A stretch of DNA of 64,000 bases. It comes from Embleya hyalina. Its GTDB lineage: Bacteria; Actinomycetota; Actinomycetes; Streptomycetales; Streptomycetaceae. This document shows positions 432 to 55,065 of this stretch, in pieces. The translations under genes were made by a program, and so were the position numbers. The stretch is from the NCBI RefSeq assembly GCF_003967355.1, contig NZ_BIFH01000051.1, positions 42,337 to 106,336 of the forward strand, given 5' to 3'. The first letter of the stretch is position 1. Every line of letters begins with the position of its first letter. Under the pieces are notes generated by a model. It saw only the letters and a program-made list of their open reading frames with translations, was not told the DNA's origin and did no database searches.

Positions 432-790
432 GACGGCGGGCCTGGCCGGCTCAGGTCGGCCTGGGTCGGCTTGCCGTCCTCAAACGCCGGACGGGCTGAT
501 CGGCCCGGCCTTCGGCCGAGGCGGCCTCAAACGCCGGCCGGGCTGGAGTTTCGCCCGGTCGGCGTTTCGCCCGACGTTGCGGAGGTGGCACCGGACGCCG
601 GCGTGGGTGGATTTGGCCTGCCGGCGTTTCAACCGACGTTGCGGAGGTGGCGCCGGACGATGTTTCGGGCCTGGTTGCGGGGTTGGCTCTGGACACCGGT
701 GGGCGGCGGTTTGGGTCGCCGGCGTTTCGTCCGACGTTGCCGGGTGTGGCGCCGGACGTTGGTGGGCGGTTTTGTGTGTGGTGTTGGTCA
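431..790. repeat. Intergenic repeat cluster. It holds a copy of the GGCCTCAAACGCCGGCCGGGCTGG element (about 470-550) followed by about three tandem ~75-bp units (cggcgtttcNNccgacgttgcNggaggtggcNccggacg, about 545-770).
   Basis: The repeats are directly visible. A copy of the first element with about 90% identity over ~73 bp recurs at 29050-29130. The cluster lies between convergent gene ends. Confidence 0.8.
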
Positions 791-9834: not shown

Positions 9835-9908
9835 GCGCCGCTAGCTCAGTTGGTTAGAGCAGCTGACTCTTAATCAGCGGGTCCGGGGTTCGAGTCCCTG
9901 GCGGCGCA
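9835..9908 (+). tRNA. tRNA-Lys (anticodon CTT)
   Basis: The cloverleaf folds manually. The 7-bp acceptor stem GCGCCGC/GCGGCGC pairs, the anticodon loop is CTCTTAA, and the T-arm is GGTTCGAGTCC. Confidence 0.85.
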
Positions 9909-13160: not shown

Positions 13161-13168
13161 TCGACGAA

Positions 13169-13196
13169 GGACCCGAGCCGCCGGGGGCTCGGGTCC
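13169..13196. terminator. Bidirectional hairpin between convergent mobA-like and sepF-like genes
   Basis: ggacccgagcc / ggctcgggtcc 11-bp stem. Confidence 0.5.
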
Positions 13197-13251
13197 TCGC
13201 CGCCGGCGGGAGTCCGTACCGACCCCCCGGGATCGCGCCCGACGACGCCGG

Positions 13252-14954: not shown

Positions 14955-17519
14955 GTGGTCATGGAAGCACTGCGCGACGGGGATCCGACGCGGCTGGGGC
15001 CGTATCGGCTGCGCGGCCGGCTGGGCGAGGGCGGGATGGGCGAGGTCTTCCTCGGCACGTCCCCGAGCGGCGTCCGGGTGGCGGTCAAGACCGTGCGTCC
15101 GGAGTTCGCGACGGACCACGGTTTCCGGGACCGGTTCCGGCGCGAGATAGACCTGGCGCGGCGGGTGGACAGCGCCTGGACCGCGCCGATCGCCGAGGCC
15201 GATCCGGACGCGCGACCGCCGTGGTTGGCCACCGAATACCTGACCGGGCTCTCGTTGTCCGAGGCGATCACGACGTACGGCGCGCTGCCCGAGGGCGCGC
15301 TGCGCATCATGGGCGCGCAGTTGGCCGAGGCACTGATGGCGATCCATCGCGCGGGCCTGATCCATCGCGACCTCAAGCCGTCGAACGTGATCCTCGGTCG
15401 GGATCGGCTGCGGGTGATCGACTTCGGCATATCCCGGGCGGCGGACGAGGGCGGCCAGGGGCTGACCGGGACCGGTCGGGTGGTCGGGTCGCCGTCGTTC
15501 ATGTCGCCGGAACAGGCGGGCGGGCGGCGGATCGGACCGGAGAGCGACGTGTTCTCGCTGGGCTCGGTGCTGGTCTTCGCGGCCACCGGGCGGGGGCCGT
15601 TTCACGTGGAACCGCCGGTGGCGCAGTTGCAGATGATGATGCGGGTGTTGCGCGACGCACCCGCGTTGGAGGAAGTACCGGAGGGACTGCGGGACTTGGT
15701 CCGGCACTGCCTGGACAAGGAGCCCGAGGCGCGACCCACGCCGGCCGAGATCCTGGCCCGCTGCATGGGCGACTCCGAACCACCGGTGGGCACTTCGTGG
15801 TTGCCGTCGGCGCTCGCGGCCGAGTTGGAGCGGCGGCACCTGGGCGACGCGTTGTCGCCGGGTCCGGTGGGCGCCGCGACGGACGAACCTCTCGGCCGCG
15901 CGGTGGGGATCGGCGCGGACGCGGGTACGCCGACGACGGTCGCCGTGGCGGTGTCCGAGTCGCCGGGCGAACGGGTCGCCGCGCCGCCGCCGGCTCTGTC
16001 GCCGACCGTCGCCGTGGCCGAACCGCCGCCCGTCGGGCGGGGGTTGGCCCGTCGCGCGTTCCTGATCGGCGGCGGCGCGGTCGCCGTGGCCGCGGTGGGT
16101 GGCGGCGCGGGCTGGTTGTTGATGGGCGACGACGCGGATCCGGGCAGGCGGGTGTGGTCGTATCCGGCGGGCGCCGGCGGTGGTTCGTCGCTGAGCGCGC
16201 AGGGCGATCTGGTGTTCCACGTCGCCGACGGCGCGGGCGGCGGCAAGGGCCAGGTCACCGCGATCGACGCGGAATCCGGCCGGAAGGTGTGGCGCAAGGC
16301 CACCGCGGGCAACTCGGTGTCCGCGCCGCTGGCGACCAAGGACCACCTGTTCGTCGCCTCCTGGACGGTGGACCCCTCGGCCTCGGTCCCGGAGCGGTCC
16401 CAGCCGACCCTGTGCACGGTGCACGCCTTCGACCCGGTCGAGGGCGAACTGCGGTGGAGCCTGGAGTACAAGGCCCGCTGGGTGAACCTGCCGGCCGGCC
16501 TGGATCAGGGCCTGCTGTACCTGGGCGTCGCCGAGGAGAACTCCTACAGCACCGGACCCGGGGCGATCGTCGCGATCGACGCGGCCACGCACCGTGAGGT
16601 GTGGAGGGCGGGGCTGACGGCGGATGCCGGCATGCCGGGGACGCCGACGTTCGGGAACGACCTGGTGGTCGCCGTCGCCCAGCCCAAGGCGTCCTACAAC
16701 CCGTCCGCGGTCCACGCCTTCGACCGGTCCGGCAAGCCGAGGTGGCAGGTCCCGTTCAAGAGCCGGCCGTGGGGTCGCGATCCGGTGATCGTCGGGGACC
16801 GGGTGCTCACGGTGGTGACCGACAGTTCCAGCGGCGGCGTGTTCACCTGGCAGCGATACGCGCTCGACGCGACCACCGGGGCGGTGTTGTGGGGGCCCAT
16901 CCCGGTCGACGGCGGCCAGGCCCGTTCGCTCACCGTGGCCGGCGACCACGTCTTCATGGTCTACGACGGGGCCACCGACGAGGCCAGGTCGGGTGTCGTG
17001 GCGGTGGACCCGCTCACGGGCTCGCAGTCGTGGAAGTTCGAGATGGAGGCCCGCAACGCGAGCGAGATCACCCGGGTGGGCGACGTGGTCTACGTCGCGT
17101 GTCACCCCTCCAAACCGCAGGCGGGCGTGACACCGAGCGCGACCACGACCACCACCCCGCCGCCCACCAACCCGCCGGCCACGTCGGTGTCCACGGGCAA
17201 GGTCTACGCGCTGGAGGCGAGTACGGGCGTGGTGCGGTGGTCGGCCGAGATGCCCTCGTACGGCGCGCTGACGGCCCCCGTCGTCGCGGGCGACAAGGTC
17301 TACGTCTCGATGGACGCCGCCAGGTCGGACGCCTCGCGCGACGACGCGGCCCAACTGCTGGCCCTGCACACCAAGACGGGCAAGGTCGCCTGGAAAGCCC
17401 CCCTCCCGTCCCCGGTATCGTCCCGCCCCTTGGCGGCACGGGGCAACGTATACATCGCCCAGTGGCTCCGCCCCGACGAGGGCAACTCGAACGCCTCGGT
17501 CATCGCATACGAGCAGTAG
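14955..17519 (+). CDS. Ser/Thr protein kinase with C-terminal PQQ-type beta-propeller repeats, 854 aa
   Basis: Kinase subdomains GEGGMGEVF, VAVK, HRDLKPSNVIL, DFGIS, SPE. A Pro-rich linker and TM segment follow. Repeated 'W..…G…V…DG.VY' propeller blades complete the protein. Confidence 0.9.
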   Translation: MVMEALRDGDPTRLGPYRLRGRLGEGGMGEVFLGTSPSGVRVAVKTVRPEFATDHGFRDRFRREIDLARRVDSAWTAPIAEADPDARPPWLATEYLTGLSLSEAITTYGALPEGALRIMGAQLAEALMAIHRAGLIHRDLKPSNVILGRDRLRVIDFGISRAADEGGQGLTGTGRVVGSPSFMSPEQAGGRRIGPESDVFSLGSVLVFAATGRGPFHVEPPVAQLQMMMRVLRDAPALEEVPEGLRDLVRHCLDKEPEARPTPAEILARCMGDSEPPVGTSWLPSALAAELERRHLGDALSPGPVGAATDEPLGRAVGIGADAGTPTTVAVAVSESPGERVAAPPPALSPTVAVAEPPPVGRGLARRAFLIGGGAVAVAAVGGGAGWLLMGDDADPGRRVWSYPAGAGGGSSLSAQGDLVFHVADGAGGGKGQVTAIDAESGRKVWRKATAGNSVSAPLATKDHLFVASWTVDPSASVPERSQPTLCTVHAFDPVEGELRWSLEYKARWVNLPAGLDQGLLYLGVAEENSYSTGPGAIVAIDAATHREVWRAGLTADAGMPGTPTFGNDLVVAVAQPKASYNPSAVHAFDRSGKPRWQVPFKSRPWGRDPVIVGDRVLTVVTDSSSGGVFTWQRYALDATTGAVLWGPIPVDGGQARSLTVAGDHVFMVYDGATDEARSGVVAVDPLTGSQSWKFEMEARNASEITRVGDVVYVACHPSKPQAGVTPSATTTTTPPPTNPPATSVSTGKVYALEASTGVVRWSAEMPSYGALTAPVVAGDKVYVSMDAARSDASRDDAAQLLALHTKTGKVAWKAPLPSPVSSRPLAARGNVYIAQWLRPDEGNSNASVIAYEQ

Positions 17520-18918: not shown

Positions 18919-18940
18919 GCGAGAGCCGGTTCGCGACACG

Positions 18941-18981
18941 AGGGGAGGGCCGAGGCGGGGTCTCGGCCCTCCCCTCTTCGC
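18941..18981. terminator. Bidirectional hairpin terminator (gaggggagggccgag…ctcggccctcccctc)
   Basis: Perfect 15-bp stem between convergent genes. Confidence 0.7.
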
Positions 18982-18999
18982 CGCCCGATCCCGGGAGGG

Positions 19000-19400: not shown

Positions 19401-20008
19401 CTTCTGCAATCCCGGTGGACCTCGACCTGCTCCGCACCCCACCCCCCAGGGAACGCGCCGACGCGGCCCGCAACCGCGCCGCGATCCTGGAAGCCGCCGC
19501 GGCGCTGTTCGCCGAACACGGCGTCGAATCGGTATCCATGGACCAGATCGCCACGGCGGCCGGCGTCGGCAAGGGCACGTTGTTCCGCCGCTTCGGCGAC
19601 AAATCCGGCCTGGCCACGGCCCTCTTGGACACGCGCGAACGCGCGCTCCAGGAAGCCATCCTCGGCGGCCCGCCCCCACTCGGCCCGGGAGCCCCGGCGG
19701 AGGACCGCCTGGCAGCGTTCCTCGACGCCTACGTCGACTACCTCCTGGAGCACCTCGACCTGATCCGCATGTCGGAGACCTCGACCCCGGGCGCCCGCTA
19801 CCGAATCGGCGCCTACCGGTTCTGGCACCGCCACGTGGCGATCCTGCTCCCCGCGAAAACCCCCGACCCGACCTACACGGCCCACGCCCTGTTGGCCCCG
19901 CTGTCCGCCGAACACGTCACGGCCCTGCTCCCGGAACTGGGCCCGACCCGCATCCGAGAGGGCGTCCTCCACCTGGCCGAGTCGACGATCGGAACCCCGC
20001 CCCGCTGA
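19370..20008 (+). CDS. TetR-family transcriptional regulator, 212 aa
   Basis: Its HTH RNRAAILEAAAALFAEHGVESVSMDQIATAAGVGKGTLFRRF matches the TetR family. Confidence 0.9.
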   Translation: MPDDINGPQSASAIPVDLDLLRTPPPRERADAARNRAAILEAAAALFAEHGVESVSMDQIATAAGVGKGTLFRRFGDKSGLATALLDTRERALQEAILGGPPPLGPGAPAEDRLAAFLDAYVDYLLEHLDLIRMSETSTPGARYRIGAYRFWHRHVAILLPAKTPDPTYTAHALLAPLSAEHVTALLPELGPTRIREGVLHLAESTIGTPPR

Positions 20009-20488
20009 GTGTCCGAGGACCCACCCCCGGGCAGGAATCGCCTCATGGTGGAACTACCCGCGGACACCCGCCGGATGATCGAAACGCCACACATCTGGTA
20101 CGTGGCGACGATCAACAAGGACGGATCCCCCCACGTCGGCCCCATGTGGCTGGGCCTCGACGGCGACCTGCCCCTGATCAACACCGCGATCGGCCGAATC
20201 AAGGAACAAAACCTGCGCCGCGACCCGCGCATATGCCTGTCCCTGGCAGACCCGGCGAACCCCTACGACCGGGTACAGATCCGCGGCCACGCCGCACACT
20301 TCGTCCAGGGCCCCGAGGCAGACCGGAACATGGACAGGCTGGCCCACGCCTACCTGGGCACCGACACCTTCGAATGGCGAGTCCCGGGCGAACAACGCGT
20401 CGTCATCCTGATCGAACCCACCAAAGTGCGCCGCGTAGTCGGAGTCGAACCCTTCCCCAAAGGCGCCCCGGGCTCGACCACCCCATAG
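20009..20488 (+). CDS. PPOX-class (pyridoxamine 5'-phosphate oxidase-like) F420-dependent enzyme family protein, about 150-159 aa
   Basis: The fold-family signature is …HIWYVATINKDGSPHVGPMW… The start is either the GTG at 20009 or the ATG at 20045. Confidence 0.65.
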   Translation: MSEDPPPGRNRLMVELPADTRRMIETPHIWYVATINKDGSPHVGPMWLGLDGDLPLINTAIGRIKEQNLRRDPRICLSLADPANPYDRVQIRGHAAHFVQGPEADRNMDRLAHAYLGTDTFEWRVPGEQRVVILIEPTKVRRVVGVEPFPKGAPGSTTP

Positions 20489-20531
20489 GCCCGCAACCGA
20501 TTCCCGCACGGCAACCGACGGGCGCCGGACC

Positions 20532-24013: not shown

Positions 24014-24028
24014 CCGCGGTCGGCGAAC

Positions 24029-24058
24029 CCGGCGGGGACGGCCGTCCGTCCCCGCCGG
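24029..24058. terminator. Bidirectional hairpin (ccggcggggacgg-ccgt-ccgtccccgccgg)
   Basis: 13-bp GC stem between convergent gnd and deaminase genes. Confidence 0.6.
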
Positions 24059-24064
24059 AAGCCC

Positions 24065-24770: not shown

Positions 24771-24854
24771 TGCGGCCGAAGGGACTCGAACCCTCATATC
24801 CTCTCGGACGGCAGGACCTAAACCTGCTGCGTCAACCAATTGCGCCACGGCCGC
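24771..24854 (-). tRNA. tRNA-Leu (anticodon TAG), long variable arm
   Basis: Reverse complement GCGGCCGTGGCGCAATTGGTTGACGCAGCAGGTTTAGGTCCTGC…GGTTCGAGTCCCTTCGGCCGCA. The acceptor stem pairs and the anticodon loop is TTTAGGT. Confidence 0.8.
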
Positions 24855-25843: not shown

Positions 25844-27298
25844 GTGTCCCTGCCCCACACGGACTCCGCAAGCGCCGCCCGAAGCGCCGCCCCGCACGAC
25901 ACCCCGAGCACCACCCCACCCGGCACCGGCGTCGCCTCCGACGAGCTGTTCCAGGTGGAGACGCACGGGATCGACCCGATCCCGGACCACGAGCGCCACG
26001 GCAGCGCCAGGGACGTCTTCTGGCTCTGGTTCGGCTCGAACCTCTCCTTCACCTTCGTGATCAACGGCACCCTCGCGGTGATGTTCGGGTTGTCGTTCGG
26101 GGCGGCGATCGCCGTCGTCGTGATCACCGGCTTCTCCTTCTTCGCGGTCGGCGCCCTCGGCCTCGCCGGCGTCCGCACCGGCACCGCGACCCTGGTGATC
26201 TCGCGCGCCGCGTTCGGCGTACACGGCAACTTCCCGGCCGGCCTGCTCAACTGGGTGGTCGGCATCGGATACACGATCTTGAACACCGTGGTCGGCACCT
26301 TCGCCCTCGAAGGGCTGTTCGCCGAGCTCGGCTGGGTCGGCGGCGACCTCGCCCGGGTGGTCGCGCTGGCGATCACCCTCTCGCTCACCTTCGCGGTGGC
26401 GATGTGGGGGCACGCCACCGTGCAGGCCGCGGAGCGCTGGATGGCCTACGTCCTGGGCATCGGCTTCGGCCTGCTGATCCTGTTCGTCGTCCCCGGCCTG
26501 AGGACCGGCGACGCGCCCGAGACCTCGAACACGTTCCACGCGATCTCGCTCGCCGTGCTCGTCCTGGTCGCCGGCCCGATCTCCTACCTGCCGATGCCCT
26601 CGGACTACACCCGCTACCTGCCCCGGGACACCTCGCTGCGCTCGATCACCCTGTGGGGCGCGGCCGGCGGAATGCTCTCCTCGGTGCTGCTCGGCGTACT
26701 CGGCGTGGCCGCGGCCACCCAGGCCGACATGACCGACCCGGTGGCGGGCGTGGCCGACCTGGTGCCCGGCTGGTTCGAGGCGCCGTTCCTGCTGCTCGTG
26801 GTGGGCGGCTCGATCACCAACTCGATCCTGACCCTGTACTCCTCCAGCCTGAACCTCCAGGTGCTGGGCATCCCGTGGTCGCGCGCCAAGGGCATCCTGG
26901 TCAGCACCGCGTTCATCCTGGTCGGCTCGTTGTGGGCGCTGTTCAACGGCAACTTCACCGACAACCTGACCAGCTTCCTGTCCGTGCTCGTGGTGGTCTT
27001 CGCGCCGTGGGGCGGCGTGTTCATCGCCGACACGCTGATGCGCCGCTGCCGCTACGACGCCGACGGCCTGCACGACATGCGCGGCGGTGCCTACTGGTAC
27101 ACCCGCGGCTTCCATCCCGCCGGGATGATCGCGCTCGGCGCCGGCATCGCCTTCGCCGCGCTGACCGCCGAGTCCGCGCTGTGGACCGGCGCCCTCGTGG
27201 AGACCTTCGACGGCGACTTCACGCTGCTCGGCGCGGTCGTCTCCGGTCTCGCCTACTGGGCCCTCGCCCGTCGCGAACCGCAGTTCGCCAAGCACTGA
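25844..27298 (+). CDS. NCS1-family purine-cytosine/nucleobase permease, about 484 aa
   Basis: RBS AAGAGGAGG precedes the GTG. 12 TM helices and the CodB-like pattern are present. Confidence 0.8.
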   Translation: MSLPHTDSASAARSAAPHDTPSTTPPGTGVASDELFQVETHGIDPIPDHERHGSARDVFWLWFGSNLSFTFVINGTLAVMFGLSFGAAIAVVVITGFSFFAVGALGLAGVRTGTATLVISRAAFGVHGNFPAGLLNWVVGIGYTILNTVVGTFALEGLFAELGWVGGDLARVVALAITLSLTFAVAMWGHATVQAAERWMAYVLGIGFGLLILFVVPGLRTGDAPETSNTFHAISLAVLVLVAGPISYLPMPSDYTRYLPRDTSLRSITLWGAAGGMLSSVLLGVLGVAAATQADMTDPVAGVADLVPGWFEAPFLLLVVGGSITNSILTLYSSSLNLQVLGIPWSRAKGILVSTAFILVGSLWALFNGNFTDNLTSFLSVLVVVFAPWGGVFIADTLMRRCRYDADGLHDMRGGAYWYTRGFHPAGMIALGAGIAFAALTAESALWTGALVETFDGDFTLLGAVVSGLAYWALARREPQFAKH

Positions 27299-27345
27299 AC
27301 CACCTCGCACCAGACCCCCATCGCACCACCCCTGGAGTTGTCACC

Positions 27346-28989
27346 GTGTCCCGCACCGCCGACCTGGTCCTGCGCAACGCGCTCATCCACACCGTCGACC
27401 CCGATCTGCCCGAGGCCGAGGCGCTGGCCGTCCGGGACGGGCGGATCGCCTGGGTGGGCGCGGACGCCGACGCGGCGGCCTGGATCGGTCCGGAGACCAC
27501 CGTGCTCGACGGCGCCGGGCGGCGGGTGCTGCCCGGCTTCATCGACGCGCACAACCACGTCCGGCTCGGTTCGGACGACGCCTGCGTACAACTGGCGGGG
27601 GCGCGCACGTTGGCCGACATCCACGAACGGATCGGCGCCTGGCTGGCGGCCAACCCGGACGCCGAGTGGGTCGAGGCCGAGGCGTTCGACTACTCGGCGA
27701 TCCCCGACGGACGCATGCCGCGCGCGAGCGACCTCGACCCGATCACCGGCGACGTGCCGGCCTTCGTGCTCAGCTACGACGTGCACACGGCGTGGCTCAA
27801 CAGCGCCGCGATCGAGCGGCTCGGCATCACCCGGGACAGCGACGTGCTGCCCTTCGGCCGGGTGGACAAGGACCCGGAGACGGGCGAACCGACGGGCTTC
27901 GTCAAGGACTTCGCGGTGCGCGGCCTCTCCCGTGACGGACATCGCGCGCTGCGGGACCTGGGCGTGCCGTGGGCCTCGGCCGACCGGCAGTACGGGCGGC
28001 TGGCCAAGAGCCTGGACGACGCGATCCGGTTCGGCATCACCACCGTGGTCGAGCCGCAGAACTCGCTCGACGACCTGGCGCTGTACACCCGGGCGCGGCA
28101 CGAGGGCCGGCTGCGCTCGCGGATCGTCGCGGCGCTGTTCCACCCGCGCGGCACCACCGACGCCGACCTGGACGAATTCGCCGCCGCGGCACGTGAGTTC
28201 GCCGACGACCGGCTGCGGGTGGGGCCGCTGAAGCTGTACATCGACGACGTGGTCGAGCCGCGCACCGCCGCGCTCCTGGAGCCGTATCGCGGGTGCGCCC
28301 GTCATCGGGGCGAGACGTTCTACCCGGCGGAGGAGTTCGCCGACCTGCTGGCGCGGCTGGACGGGCGGGGCTTCCAGTGTTTCGTGCACGCGACCGGCGA
28401 CCGGGGCATCCGCACCGTCCTGGACGCGGTCGAGCACGCCCGGGCGGTCAACGGCGAGCGCGACGCGCGGCACCAGGTGGTGCACGTGGAGTGCCTGGAC
28501 CCGGCGGACGTGTCCCGCTTCGCCGAGCTGGGCGTGGTGGCGTGCATGCAGCCCAGGCACTGCGCGCCGGAGATCGCCGGGCCGGGGCGGGACTGGGCGG
28601 AGAACGTCGGCGAGGAGCGCTGGCACAAGGCGTGGCCGATGCGGAGCCTGCGGGCCGCCGGGGCGGTCCTGGCGCTGTCCAGCGACTGGAACGTGGCCGA
28701 GATGGACCCGATGGTCGGCGTGTACACCGCGCTCACCCGCGCGCCGCTGGCGGGCGGGCCGGCCTGGATCCCGGAGGAGACGCTCGACGTGGAGGCCACG
28801 ATCCACGGCTACACGATGGGCTCGGCCTACGCGAACTTCCTGGAGCACGAGCGCGGGTCCCTGACGGTGGGCAAGCTCGCCGACTTCGTCGTGCTCTCAC
28901 GCGACATCATGCGGGTCGCTGCCGCGGAGATTCCGGGCACGGTCTGCGAGGTCGTCGCGGTCGGTGGCGAACTCGTGCACACGGCCTAG
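27346..28989 (+). CDS. Amidohydrolase-family metal-dependent hydrolase (amidohydrolase 3), 547 aa
   Basis: FIDAHNHV metal-binding HxH, …HATGDRG…, …SDWNV…. Confidence 0.8.
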   Translation: MSRTADLVLRNALIHTVDPDLPEAEALAVRDGRIAWVGADADAAAWIGPETTVLDGAGRRVLPGFIDAHNHVRLGSDDACVQLAGARTLADIHERIGAWLAANPDAEWVEAEAFDYSAIPDGRMPRASDLDPITGDVPAFVLSYDVHTAWLNSAAIERLGITRDSDVLPFGRVDKDPETGEPTGFVKDFAVRGLSRDGHRALRDLGVPWASADRQYGRLAKSLDDAIRFGITTVVEPQNSLDDLALYTRARHEGRLRSRIVAALFHPRGTTDADLDEFAAAAREFADDRLRVGPLKLYIDDVVEPRTAALLEPYRGCARHRGETFYPAEEFADLLARLDGRGFQCFVHATGDRGIRTVLDAVEHARAVNGERDARHQVVHVECLDPADVSRFAELGVVACMQPRHCAPEIAGPGRDWAENVGEERWHKAWPMRSLRAAGAVLALSSDWNVAEMDPMVGVYTALTRAPLAGGPAWIPEETLDVEATIHGYTMGSAYANFLEHERGSLTVGKLADFVVLSRDIMRVAAAEIPGTVCEVVAVGGELVHTA

Positions 28990-29464
28990 CGGCGGGCCGG
29001 TGGGGGGCGGGCCGGCCTGCGGCCCACCCGGCCTCGAGCGCCGGCCGGGCTGGGTGGCCTCAAGCGCCGGCCGGGCTGATCTACCCGGCCTCCGGCCGAG
29101 GCGGCCTCAAACGCCGGCCGGGCTGGATTTTGCTCGGCCCGCGTCTCAAGGTCGGCGCGAACCCACCCACGCGAATTCAGGCCGAGCCCACACCAGCCCG
29201 GCCGGCGCTTGAGGCCGCCCGACCGGACTCCGGGCAACCCAACCCAGCCCGGCCAGCGCCTGAGGCCACCCGCCCGGATTCAGGCCGAGCCGACACCAGC
29301 CCGGCCGGCGTTTGAGGCCGCCCGACCGGACTCCGGGCAACCCAACCCAGCCCGGCCGGCATCTGAGGCCACCCGCCCGGACTCAGGCCGAGCCGACATC
29401 AGCCTGGCCGGCGTTTGAGGCCGGTTGGGCAGGGTTCGGGCGGGTCGGGGGGCGTTGTGGGGGG
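28990..29464. repeat. Repeat-element cluster. Direct copies of the GGCCTCAA(A/G)CGCCGGCCGGGCTG element (about 29020-29130) are followed by about 2.5 tandem ~102-bp units (29176-29425) carrying the same element in inverted orientation.
   Basis: The reverse complement of cctcaagcgccggccgggctg is cagcccggccggcgcttgagg, which is present three times downstream. The cluster lies between convergent gene ends. Confidence 0.8.
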
Positions 29465-29941
29465 TCAGGGTGATTCGAGTTTGAGGTCCTTGAGGAGCTT
29501 GGCCACGTGGCCCGTGGCGCGGACGTTGTACAGCGCGCGTTCCAGCTTGCCGGTCTCGTCGACGATGAACGTGGAGCGGATCACGCCCTTGACCGTCTTG
29601 CCGTACATGGTCTTCTCGCCGAAGGCCCCGTACGCCTCCAGCGTGGCCTTGTCCGGGTCCGCCAGCAGGGTCACCCGCAGGTTCTCCTTCTCCCGGAACC
29701 TGCCCAGCTTCTCCGGCTTGTCCGGGGAGATGCCGAGCACGTCGTAGCCGGCCCCGGCCAGCAGGTCGAGGTTGTCGGTGAAGTCGCACGCCTGCTTGGT
29801 GCAGCCCGGGGTCAGCGCGGCCGGGTAGAAGTACACGATGACCTTGCGGCCCGCGTAGTCGGACAGCGAGACGGACTTGCCGTCGGCGTCGGACAGGGTG
29901 AAGGCGGGGGCGGTGTCGCCCGCCTGGAGGCGGTCGCTCAC
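29465..29941 (-). CDS. bcp: Thiol peroxidase Bcp (peroxiredoxin, bacterioferritin comigratory protein), 158 aa
   Basis: …FYPAALTPGCTKQACDF… peroxidatic Cys motif. RBS GAGGAG precedes the GTG. Confidence 0.85.
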   Translation of the reverse strand: MSDRLQAGDTAPAFTLSDADGKSVSLSDYAGRKVIVYFYPAALTPGCTKQACDFTDNLDLLAGAGYDVLGISPDKPEKLGRFREKENLRVTLLADPDKATLEAYGAFGEKTMYGKTVKGVIRSTFIVDETGKLERALYNVRATGHVAKLLKDLKLESP

Positions 29942-34820: not shown

Positions 34821-34853
34821 GCACGGGCGCCGCCGGGCCGTCGGCGGCGTACC

Positions 34854-37592: not shown

Positions 37593-37671
37593 GGGGCGCG
37601 CCGCCCGGCGGTGCGGGCCGCCGGGTGCGGCGTGGGCATCGGCGCCGCGGGCCCTCGGCGCGGCCCACCGC

Positions 37672-54971: not shown

Positions 54972-55065
54972 CGCCCGCGCCCCCAACGCGTCGAGGCCGC
55001 CTCCGCACCCCGGCGCGAACCGGGAGGCGGGAAGCGGCCTCGACAGCGGGAACGGAGATCGAGCC

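Follow-up and report, generated by a model that had tools for sequence, protein, structure and literature searches.

A cluster of a dispersed 24-nt repeat family between convergent genes of Embleya hyalina: a candidate U-tract-less terminator or 3'-end-protecting hairpin with amplified arms

In Embleya hyalina (Streptomycetaceae, 72% GC), a cluster of short direct and inverted repeats fills the gap that separates two convergent genes. The stretch of DNA that was analysed, referred to here as the window, is 64,000 nt long, and all coordinates are window positions. The cluster lies between the stop codons of an amidohydrolase gene and of bcp, which encodes a thioredoxin-dependent thiol peroxidase (Table 1). 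The 5' limit of the amidohydrolase gene was taken from its longest open reading frame (ORF), and its annotated orthologs encode 547 amino acids. A first-pass annotation of this DNA had assigned the spacer to a repeat-element family as its second copy, and this assignment was correct, as the first copy was found at 475-545.

The repeat unit is a 24-nt sequence, (T/C)GG-CCTCAARCGCCGGCCGGGCTG. A unit is written as '>' when its + strand reads CCTCAA...GGGCTG and as '<' when it has the opposite orientation. Eight copies are present in the spacer, and the GGGCTG ends of the two groups face each other. The 21-nt core CAGCCCGGCCGGCGYTTGAGG, with up to three mismatches allowed, has 10 matches in the 64-kb window, compared with 0.00 expected from 100 shuffles. 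A profile hidden Markov model built from 467 family copies recovered the same 10 matches and no other significant one, and eight of them are located at 28990-29464. Unit starts are spaced 26 and 47 nt apart on the left side, compared with 51-52 nt on the right, and the outermost units begin 42 and 44 nt from the two flanking stop codons. Units 2 and 3 together with their spacer form a composite dimer, which is kept at the orthologous site in other Embleya and occurs again at window positions 475-545.

The five units on the bcp side belong to a tandem array of 103-nt period, which can equally be described as 5.0 copies of a 51-nt period at 76% matches (five units of 51.5 nt). Each 103-nt unit is a dimer of two diverged units of approximately 51.5 nt, in which one core is well kept and the other is diverged. 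The first-pass annotation had reported two direct core copies at 29020-29130, and these direct copies are real but number three. It had also placed 2.5 tandem units of 102 bp at 29176-29425, each with a reverse-complement core. The copy number and the orientation were right, but the period is 103 nt, the span begins at 29163 and ends at 29423, and every 103-nt unit holds two cores, giving five overall.

Table 1. Positions of the repeat units, the flanking genes and the related features in the 64,000-nt window.
Feature	Position	Strand	Description
Amidohydrolase gene (Amidohydro_3)	27253-28989	+	Pfam PF07969, E = 1.8e-83; stop codon 28987-28989 borders the repeat locus on the left
Intergenic spacer, 475 bp	28990-29464		Whole gap between the convergent amidohydrolase and bcp stops; eight repeat units, >>> <<<<<
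Unit 1	29029-29052	+ (rightward)	CGG-CCTCGAGCGCCGGCCGGGCTG; core 29032-29052, one mismatch (CTCGAG)
Unit 2	29055-29078	+ (rightward)	TGG-CCTCAAGCGCCGGCCGGGCTG; core 29058-29078; begins 26 nt after unit 1
Unit 3	29102-29125	+ (rightward)	CGG-CCTCAAACGCCGGCCGGGCTG; core 29105-29125; begins 47 nt after unit 2
Unit 4	29194-29217	- (leftward)	+ strand CAGCCCGGCCGGCGCTTGAGG-CCG; pairs with unit 3
Unit 5	29245-29268	- (leftward)	Diverged, two mismatches
Unit 6	29297-29320	- (leftward)	Exact core
Unit 7	29348-29371	- (leftward)	Diverged, two mismatches
Unit 8	29400-29423	- (leftward)	One mismatch
Central hairpin	29100-29219		Arms 29100-29139 and 29180-29219, 40 nt, 88% complementary, 40-nt loop
Tandem array on the bcp side	29163-29423	-	Period 103 nt x 2.5, 93% matches; holds the five leftward units
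bcp gene (thioredoxin-dependent thiol peroxidase, AhpC/TSA, 158 aa)	29465-29941	-	Pfam PF00578, E = 1e-36; protein 100% identical to an E. hyalina entry; stop codon 29465-29467 borders the repeat locus on the right
Copy 1 family locus	475-575	+	Rightward units 475-498 and 522-545, 47 nt apart; diverged partner 553-575 pairs with the second
Hairpin-bearing convergent gaps	13161-13251, 18919-18999, 24014-24064, 34821-34853, 37593-37671, 54972-55065		One unique GC-rich hairpin each

GLKRRPG(W)-type peptides can be read in five of the six frames of the spacer and LERRPGW in the sixth, with one to four stop codons per frame. The GC content of the spacer is flat over the three codon positions (0.76-0.78), whereas GC at the third codon position (GC3) in the flanking genes is 0.96-0.97. 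This difference indicates that the GLKRRPGW-type ORFs are non-coding artefacts of the repeat, as had been proposed from the sequence earlier. The related claim that such ORFs run in all six frames applies to five of them only.

The folding of the spacer is far more stable than that of its shuffled versions, with z = -11.3 on the + strand and -9.7 on the - strand for RNA and z = -11.1 for DNA. The central 128 nt (29096-29223) alone fold at -92.2 kcal/mol on the + strand (z = -10.0) and at -104.9 kcal/mol on the - strand (z = -10.9). In contrast, a single-orientation 103-nt unit by itself folds no better than shuffles (z = -1.4), which indicates that the structure of the spacer comes only from the inversion. 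The best inverted-repeat arms are 40 nt long at 88-90% complementarity (29100-29139 with 29180-29219 or with 29283-29322), or 54 nt long at 78%. The locus is a long imperfect inverted repeat, as the first-pass annotation stated, although a discontinuous one. The potential cruciform of approximately 400 bp that the same annotation derived from it was not supported. The arms are unequal (approximately 110 and 250 nt) and out of register, and the best near-contiguous stem measures approximately 40 bp with a 40-nt loop. Because the left spacings differ from the right spacings, the helices are interrupted and a continuous cruciform of that length cannot form. The fold of the whole spacer consists of three core-to-core helices with large loops between them.

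Copies of the unit are dispersed through Embleya and Streptomyces. The family sample was obtained by a 23-mer scan of a species-representative genome collection, which required an exact match and is hence biased. It comprised at least 117 loci from approximately 36 assemblies, including seven Embleya species, approximately 27 Streptomyces species, one metagenome-assembled genome of Euzebyales and one contamination-flagged contig. The listed loci and the window together hold 469 copies with up to three mismatches in 154 arrays, and the family counts given below refer to these listed matches. Conservation is limited to the 24 nt of TGG-CCTCAARCGCCGGCCGGGCTG and has sharp edges. Embleya has a high density, with 10 copies in the 64-kb window and 17 in 40 kb of locus L129, a region of Embleya sp. 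NBC_00896 on a 3.1-Mb replicon listed as a plasmid. Two same-orientation arrays lie 3.5 kb apart in that region, one of 8.4 copies of 65 nt at 95% identity (15914-16459) and one of 9.2 copies of 29 nt (19989-20250). In the plasmid database, matches occurred only in two Embleya megareplicons and one Streptomyces plasmid and were unannotated there. In PLSDB, Embleya replicons of 3.1 and 5.7 Mb are recorded as plasmids and are almost unannotated. No Rfam family matched the repeat at the gathering threshold or at a permissive E-value, and no copy was found in phage genomes or in IMG/VR viral contigs. A search with the core sequence in the Term-seq supplements of S. clavuligerus and S. avermitilis revealed no family member. 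The literature search found no description of the 24-nt family, which is not proof of its being undescribed.

The copies are enriched at the 3' ends of genes. Genes were called by the author's own GC3-based caller, according to which 85% of the window is coding. By this calling, 461 of the 469 copies (98%) lie outside predicted coding sequences. The share of gaps that hold an array is approximately three times higher for convergent gaps (58 of 146) than for co-directional (48 of 361) or divergent ones (16 of 145). In 43 of 49 cases within co-directional gaps, the distance from the array to the upstream stop is smaller than that to the downstream start, with medians of 68 and 202 nt, respectively (p = 6e-8). 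The median of 68 nt agrees with published transcript ends of Streptomyces, which lie at a median of 66-76 nt past the coding sequence (PMC12207403).

The polarity of the family is fixed. All 27 mixed-orientation arrays have the order '><', and at a relaxed threshold the ratio is 31 to 1. The lone '<>' junction (one of 32) is located in L044 at 1768-1818, where a weak copy with five mismatches lies inside a '>>>> <<' array. In the 29 innermost pairs, 84.9% of the cells pair, and their covariation of 0.083 was reached by none of 500 shuffles (0.055 +/- 0.007). Several Streptomyces carry a simple perfect hairpin, such as CCTCAATCGCCGGACGGGCTG-aaatt-CAGCCCGTCCGGCGATTGAGG in L064 and L076. Tandem periods of 26, 29, 47, 51, 62-65, 93 and 103 nt occur in the family, the longer unit type is genome-specific, and pure head-to-tail arrays with 26-nt spacing reach 13 copies (L108).

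Some of these features could also be produced by an array of sites in the DNA itself, in which the 24-nt core is bound by a host protein, either nucleoid-associated or topoisomerase- or gyrase-like, as is known for the BIMEs (bacterial interspersed mosaic elements) of E. coli. The sharp 24-nt bounds and near-invariant positions in two genera, with spacers free to vary, would fit such an array, as would the long head-to-tail runs at 26-nt spacing. A function independent of the strand would also suit the weak orientation bias described below. However, the conservation of the core is partly a product of the search criterion, the fixed '><' polarity and the compensatory changes in the arms favour pairing over independent sites, and neither a candidate protein nor a known motif was identified. 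A binding array is considered improbable. The arrays with 62-65-nt periods, whose inter-core segments of 41-44 nt are partly variable, and the several open reading frames of the window spacer might instead recall a CRISPR-like array or small protein-coding repeats encoding GLKRRPGW peptides. Both readings are effectively refuted and retain almost no probability. The inter-core segments are mutually related and have conserved ends, unlike CRISPR spacers; periods down to 26 nt leave no room for a spacer; and orientation flips within arrays. The flat GC content of the spacer is at odds with coding, and neither reading is supported by an Rfam match.

The orthologous site was compared in other Embleya species, which were reached via Bcp homologs. 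Units at this site are given in the orientation that places bcp on the + strand, opposite to that of the window. A syntenic amidohydrolase ortholog was called in five of six further Embleya species, and in each of these it is convergent with bcp. Two to nine units are present over six Embleya genomes. The gap measures 70 nt in Embleya sp. AB8, with a single '><' that forms one perfect 23-bp palindrome and with no higher-order period. It increases to 286 nt in NBC_00896 ('>><<'), 457 nt in MST-111070 ('>>>>><<', period 53 nt x 3.4), 475 nt in the window ('>>>>><<<', period 103 nt x 2.5), 518 nt in NPDC020630 ('>>>>><<<', period 71 nt x 3.2) and 580 nt in E. scabrispora ('>>>>>>><<', period 106 nt x 2.7, 97% matches). 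The AB8 palindrome, ggCCTCATGCGCCGGCCGGGCTG-ga-CAGCCCGGCCGGCGCATGAGGcc, folds at -62 kcal/mol, and its stem carries compensatory AA-to-TG and TT-to-CA changes (CCTCATGCG...CGCATGAGG). The 47-nt-spaced dimer on the amidohydrolase side is kept among the orthologs. The synteny of these arrays across Embleya indicates that the element at the bcp/amidohydrolase site is old. The suggestion in the first-pass annotation that the locus is a slippage hotspot agrees with the variable copy number and the differing higher-order periods. These comparisons suggest that the two arms expand and contract independently in each lineage, while the '><' polarity is always kept.

An exceptional arrangement was observed in NBC_00888 (L125 3478-5042; also L124 and L126). 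A gene for a major facilitator superfamily (MFS) transporter lies between bcp and the amidohydrolase gene, an ordinary hairpin with a T-run follows bcp, the MFS and amidohydrolase stops are 15 nt apart, and no family copies are present.

The same comparison bears on the possibility that the repeats, or their number, arose from draft misassembly. The source assembly is a draft, the longest contig on record for the identical Bcp protein being 106 kb, and short-read Logan contigs of three related Embleya strains (L120 2746-2904, L123 2672-2825 and L128 2746-2903) end approximately 125-160 nt past the bcp stop. As these contigs end inside the first repeat units, the family fragments short-read assemblies, and its arrays are hard to assemble. 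However, the orthologous site is occupied by equivalent arrays of the same polarity in the complete genomes CP182422.1 and CP108776.1 as well as on an E. scabrispora contig of 7.0 Mb, and such arrays occur at more than 100 other loci. Since complete genomes carry these arrays, the cluster is not an assembly artefact, and a role for misassembly is highly improbable. Doubt is left only for the exact number of 103-nt units, which is still provisional in this draft.

Together, these data suggest that the cluster is probably a palindromic cluster of the REP (repetitive extragenic palindromic)/BIME type that serves as a U-tract-less bidirectional terminator or as a 3'-end-protecting hairpin, with arms amplified by slippage. 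In this model, two units whose GGGCTG ends face each other would form a GC-rich palindrome between the convergent stops, and the central hairpin would fold in transcripts that reach it from either side. The hairpin may then halt RNA polymerase, as U-tract-less ('I-shaped') hairpins do in GC-rich actinomycetes, or it may instead block 3'-to-5' exonucleases and thereby define and stabilise both mRNA 3' ends. Further copies would arise by slipped-strand mispairing or by unequal recombination between the direct repeats within each arm. Arm growth to three copies on the amidohydrolase side and five on the bcp side would give a fast-evolving minisatellite with species-specific copy number and period.

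The proposed role as a terminator or stabiliser is suggested by the position of the cluster and by the one-hairpin ortholog of AB8, and slippage is the probable mechanism of amplification judging from the sequence comparison. Term-seq in Streptomyces provides a precedent, as 353 highly structured U-tract-less 3' ends with reduced read-through were described in S. clavuligerus (PMC8269248). In the authors' interpretation, these ends are either I-shaped terminators or hairpins that protect transcripts terminated by Rho (PMC8269248). The spacer hairpin likewise is a stable stem without a U-tract that lies shortly after a stop codon. The first-pass annotation had stated that such structures can act as strong bidirectional terminators or mRNA stabilisers. 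The position exactly between two convergent stops fits that description, but the word strong does not, given that no T-run follows the central hairpin.

Several observations weigh against this interpretation. The T-run after the central hairpin is absent on either strand, and the sole match to a terminator consensus is a weak 5-bp stem followed by ATTTTG at 29114-29126. In S. clavuligerus, the reduction of read-through by U-tract-less hairpins is weaker (PMC8269248). Most arrays elsewhere (114 of the 154, of single orientation and with both 100-nt flanks present) lack a good ungapped partner arm within 100 nt, and without such an arm they cannot form this hairpin. A slight excess of ungapped partner arms was found for the single-orientation arrays, and by inspection many have short or gapped partial partners. 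The paired arms are often hybrids of two subfamilies, GGCC...CCGGCCGG and GTCC...CCGGACGG, with frequent mismatches. The orientation of arrays relative to the nearest gene is weakly biased (28 vs 15 in co-directional gaps, p = 0.07; 26 vs 19 in convergent gaps, p = 0.37). The enrichment at 3' ends might also be explained simply by insertions being tolerated in places where they leave promoters intact.

Such tolerance is central to the view that the family is selfish or neutral DNA, a non-autonomous unit resembling a MITE (miniature inverted-repeat transposable element) or a REPIN that is copied by an enzyme encoded elsewhere. The hairpin would then be a functionless by-product, and copies would gather behind genes and in convergent gaps because they are harmless there. 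The composite dimer, which includes a 26-nt spacer, is present at two window loci that are unlinked and at the orthologous sites, which would fit the copying of a unit. In several Streptomyces, nested palindromes of approximately 240 bp in which the core forms the terminal inverted repeats are found repeatedly (twice in L089, and in L026 and L096). The genome-specific longer unit type, the nearly strand-agnostic orientation, the frequency of single-orientation arrays without a detectable full-length partner arm, and the density of 17 copies per 40 kb of L129 point in the same direction. In contrast, neither a transposase nor any other gene family was seen to recur around the loci. All-against-all clustering of 772 locus genes returned only common paralogous families (ABC ATPase, SDR and LysR), and a Pfam scan of the 136 nearest neighbours revealed no transposase among the families they had in common. 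No flanking direct repeat of 3 nt or more, as expected of a target-site duplication, was detected in 12 simple elements except for one chance 4-mer. The absence of the repeat from phage genomes and IMG/VR also counts against this view, and the element at the bcp site is old and syntenic in Embleya and not presence-polymorphic. A purely selfish origin is regarded as rather unlikely. It would nevertheless be compatible with a terminator or protective hairpin, because REPs are both selfish and functional.

The nested palindromes measure approximately 220-250 bp (L089 744-963 and 7416-7634, L026 6138-6391, and L096 7394-7612). Their interior is conserved and contains another inverted repeat, CTGGAACGCGGTGC...GCACCGCGTTCCAG; they occur in several Streptomyces species and are MITE-like without a target-site duplication. 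Together with the dispersed composite dimer, they hint at the copying of defined segments. In other Streptomyces loci (L032 1045-1185, L007, L050, L056 and L083), the core lies in a BIME-like mosaic with other dispersed repeats. One partner, CCCGCCCCTTCCCGAAACCGGGGCTCCGCCCCGGACCCC, often provides inverted arms on the outside, and another, CCGCGCTnnCGCGCGG, is a small hairpin that directly precedes the TGG-core on its 5' side.

It can be speculated, although this is on the whole unlikely, that the 24-nt core marks a repeat system of the Streptomycetaceae with its own machinery. This could be an enzyme that copies the unit to the 3' ends of genes and extends it into arrays, or a host protein that uses them as landmarks of transcription-unit ends. 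Such an enzyme may extend polar arrays around one inversion point, as an actinomycete counterpart of REP/RAYT (REP-associated tyrosine transposase) with a different architecture. On this view, the strict '><' polarity, the sharp 24-nt bounds shared by different genera and the pure 26-nt arrays would be the mark of such machinery and not of passive slippage. A RAYT was not seen in the 8-kb pieces around the 117 listed loci; RAYTs are single-copy genes, so one could lie elsewhere. A transposase was also considered between the inverted arrays of L033 and L098 and was rejected, as the flanked genes look aldose-epimerase-like and like an SGNH hydrolase, judging from ORF translations alone.

The window contains further features. 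The copy 1 locus lies downstream of a TauD-family gene (stop 429-431). A second repeat family occupies 553-760 with three copies of the approximately 45-nt GCCGGCGTTTCNNCCGACGTTGCGGAGGTGGCGCCGGACG (three matches compared with 0.02 expected). It lies directly to the right of the two '>' cores of copy 1, and its first copy pairs with the core at 522-545. The GCCGGCGTTTCNNCCGACGTTGCGGAGGTGGCGCCGGACG repeat has GCCGGCGTTT in common with the main unit, from which it may have diverged as a leftward relative. Six of the seven other convergent gaps, which measure 33-94 nt, hold one hairpin each without a T-run, with a best 70-nt fold of -21 to -50 kcal/mol. These lone hairpins suggest that a single hairpin like that of AB8 is the local norm. 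In the seventh gap, which is 523 nt long (20009-20531), neither a strong hairpin nor a family copy is present, and a gene missed by the GC3-based caller may lie there. Two tRNA genes, at 9835-9908 (+) and 24771-24854 (-), were detected with Rfam RF00005 (68 and 51 bits) and are unrelated to the repeat family.

If the proposed function is true, a large share of gene ends in Embleya and many Streptomyces would use one recyclable hairpin module. This would bear on transcript ends in antibiotic producers and on the antisense overlap of convergent genes. It would also bear on the annotation of 3' untranslated regions, in which the repeats yield spurious ORFs, and on assembly quality, as short-read contigs break there. 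The variable arrays would serve as ready-made variable-number tandem repeat (VNTR) markers for strain typing, and the family would be a test case for the spread and growth of terminator-like palindromes in GC-rich genomes.

The cluster belongs to a REP-like family that is apparently undescribed, although its concept is familiar. REP and BIME sequences are short GC-rich extragenic repeats that are present in hundreds of copies after genes and between convergent genes, and their family sequence is lineage-specific. Inverted REP pairs reportedly form stable hairpins that protect upstream mRNA. The Embleya repeat resembles REP, BIME and REPIN elements in being short, GC-rich, extragenic, multi-copy, enriched after genes and clustered with other short motifs. 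It differs from a REP in that its 24-nt unit is not palindromic beyond the 8-nt palindrome CCGGCCGG, and two inverted units are needed to form the palindrome. The consensus TGGCCTCAARCGCCGGCCGGGCTG lacks a GTAG or CGTC tetranucleotide at its ends, no RAYT was found in the 8-kb pieces around the listed loci, and the host is an actinomycete with 72% GC. BIME units alternate in orientation, whereas in the clusters of this family direct repeats are grouped in blocks and the orientation changes no more than once.

The SMAG repeats of Stenotrophomonas maltophilia are said to be GTAG-tagged stem-loops associated with a RAYT. They share with the Embleya family the occurrence as single units, head-to-head dimers and tandem arrays, the location of many copies near stop codons, and a proposed effect at the mRNA level. 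Their sequence is unrelated, and the GTAG tag and the RAYT are features of SMAG. The mycobacterial interspersed repetitive units (MIRUs) are reported to lie inside operons and to contain small overlapping ORFs. Similar to MIRU/VNTR loci, the Embleya array is an actinobacterial intergenic tandem repeat of approximately 51-53 nt (and multiples), with periods of 71, 103 and 106 nt as well, and with a copy number that varies between relatives. In contrast to MIRUs, which have neither an inverted arm nor a terminator-like palindrome and are unrelated in sequence, it is located between convergent stops and has no coding signal. The Correia elements of Neisseria are MITEs. The approximately 240-bp Streptomyces forms and the simple '><' elements resemble them in their terminal inverted repeats, non-coding nature, intergenic location and possible terminator effect. 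Unlike a MITE, the family revealed neither a target-site duplication nor a parent insertion sequence, and the window locus is an open-ended, unbounded array.

Compared with a canonical intrinsic terminator, the GC-rich hairpin is present and the U-tract is absent. The same is true of the U-tract-less 3' ends of Streptomyces, which have a long GC-rich stem without a U-run, lie tens of nucleotides past the stop codon and are usable on both strands (PMC8269248, PMC12207403). Exactly this form is seen in the AB8 ortholog and, within the window, in six of the seven other convergent gaps. Ordinary terminator hairpins are unique sequences, whereas the Embleya hairpin belongs to a multi-copy family with amplified arms.

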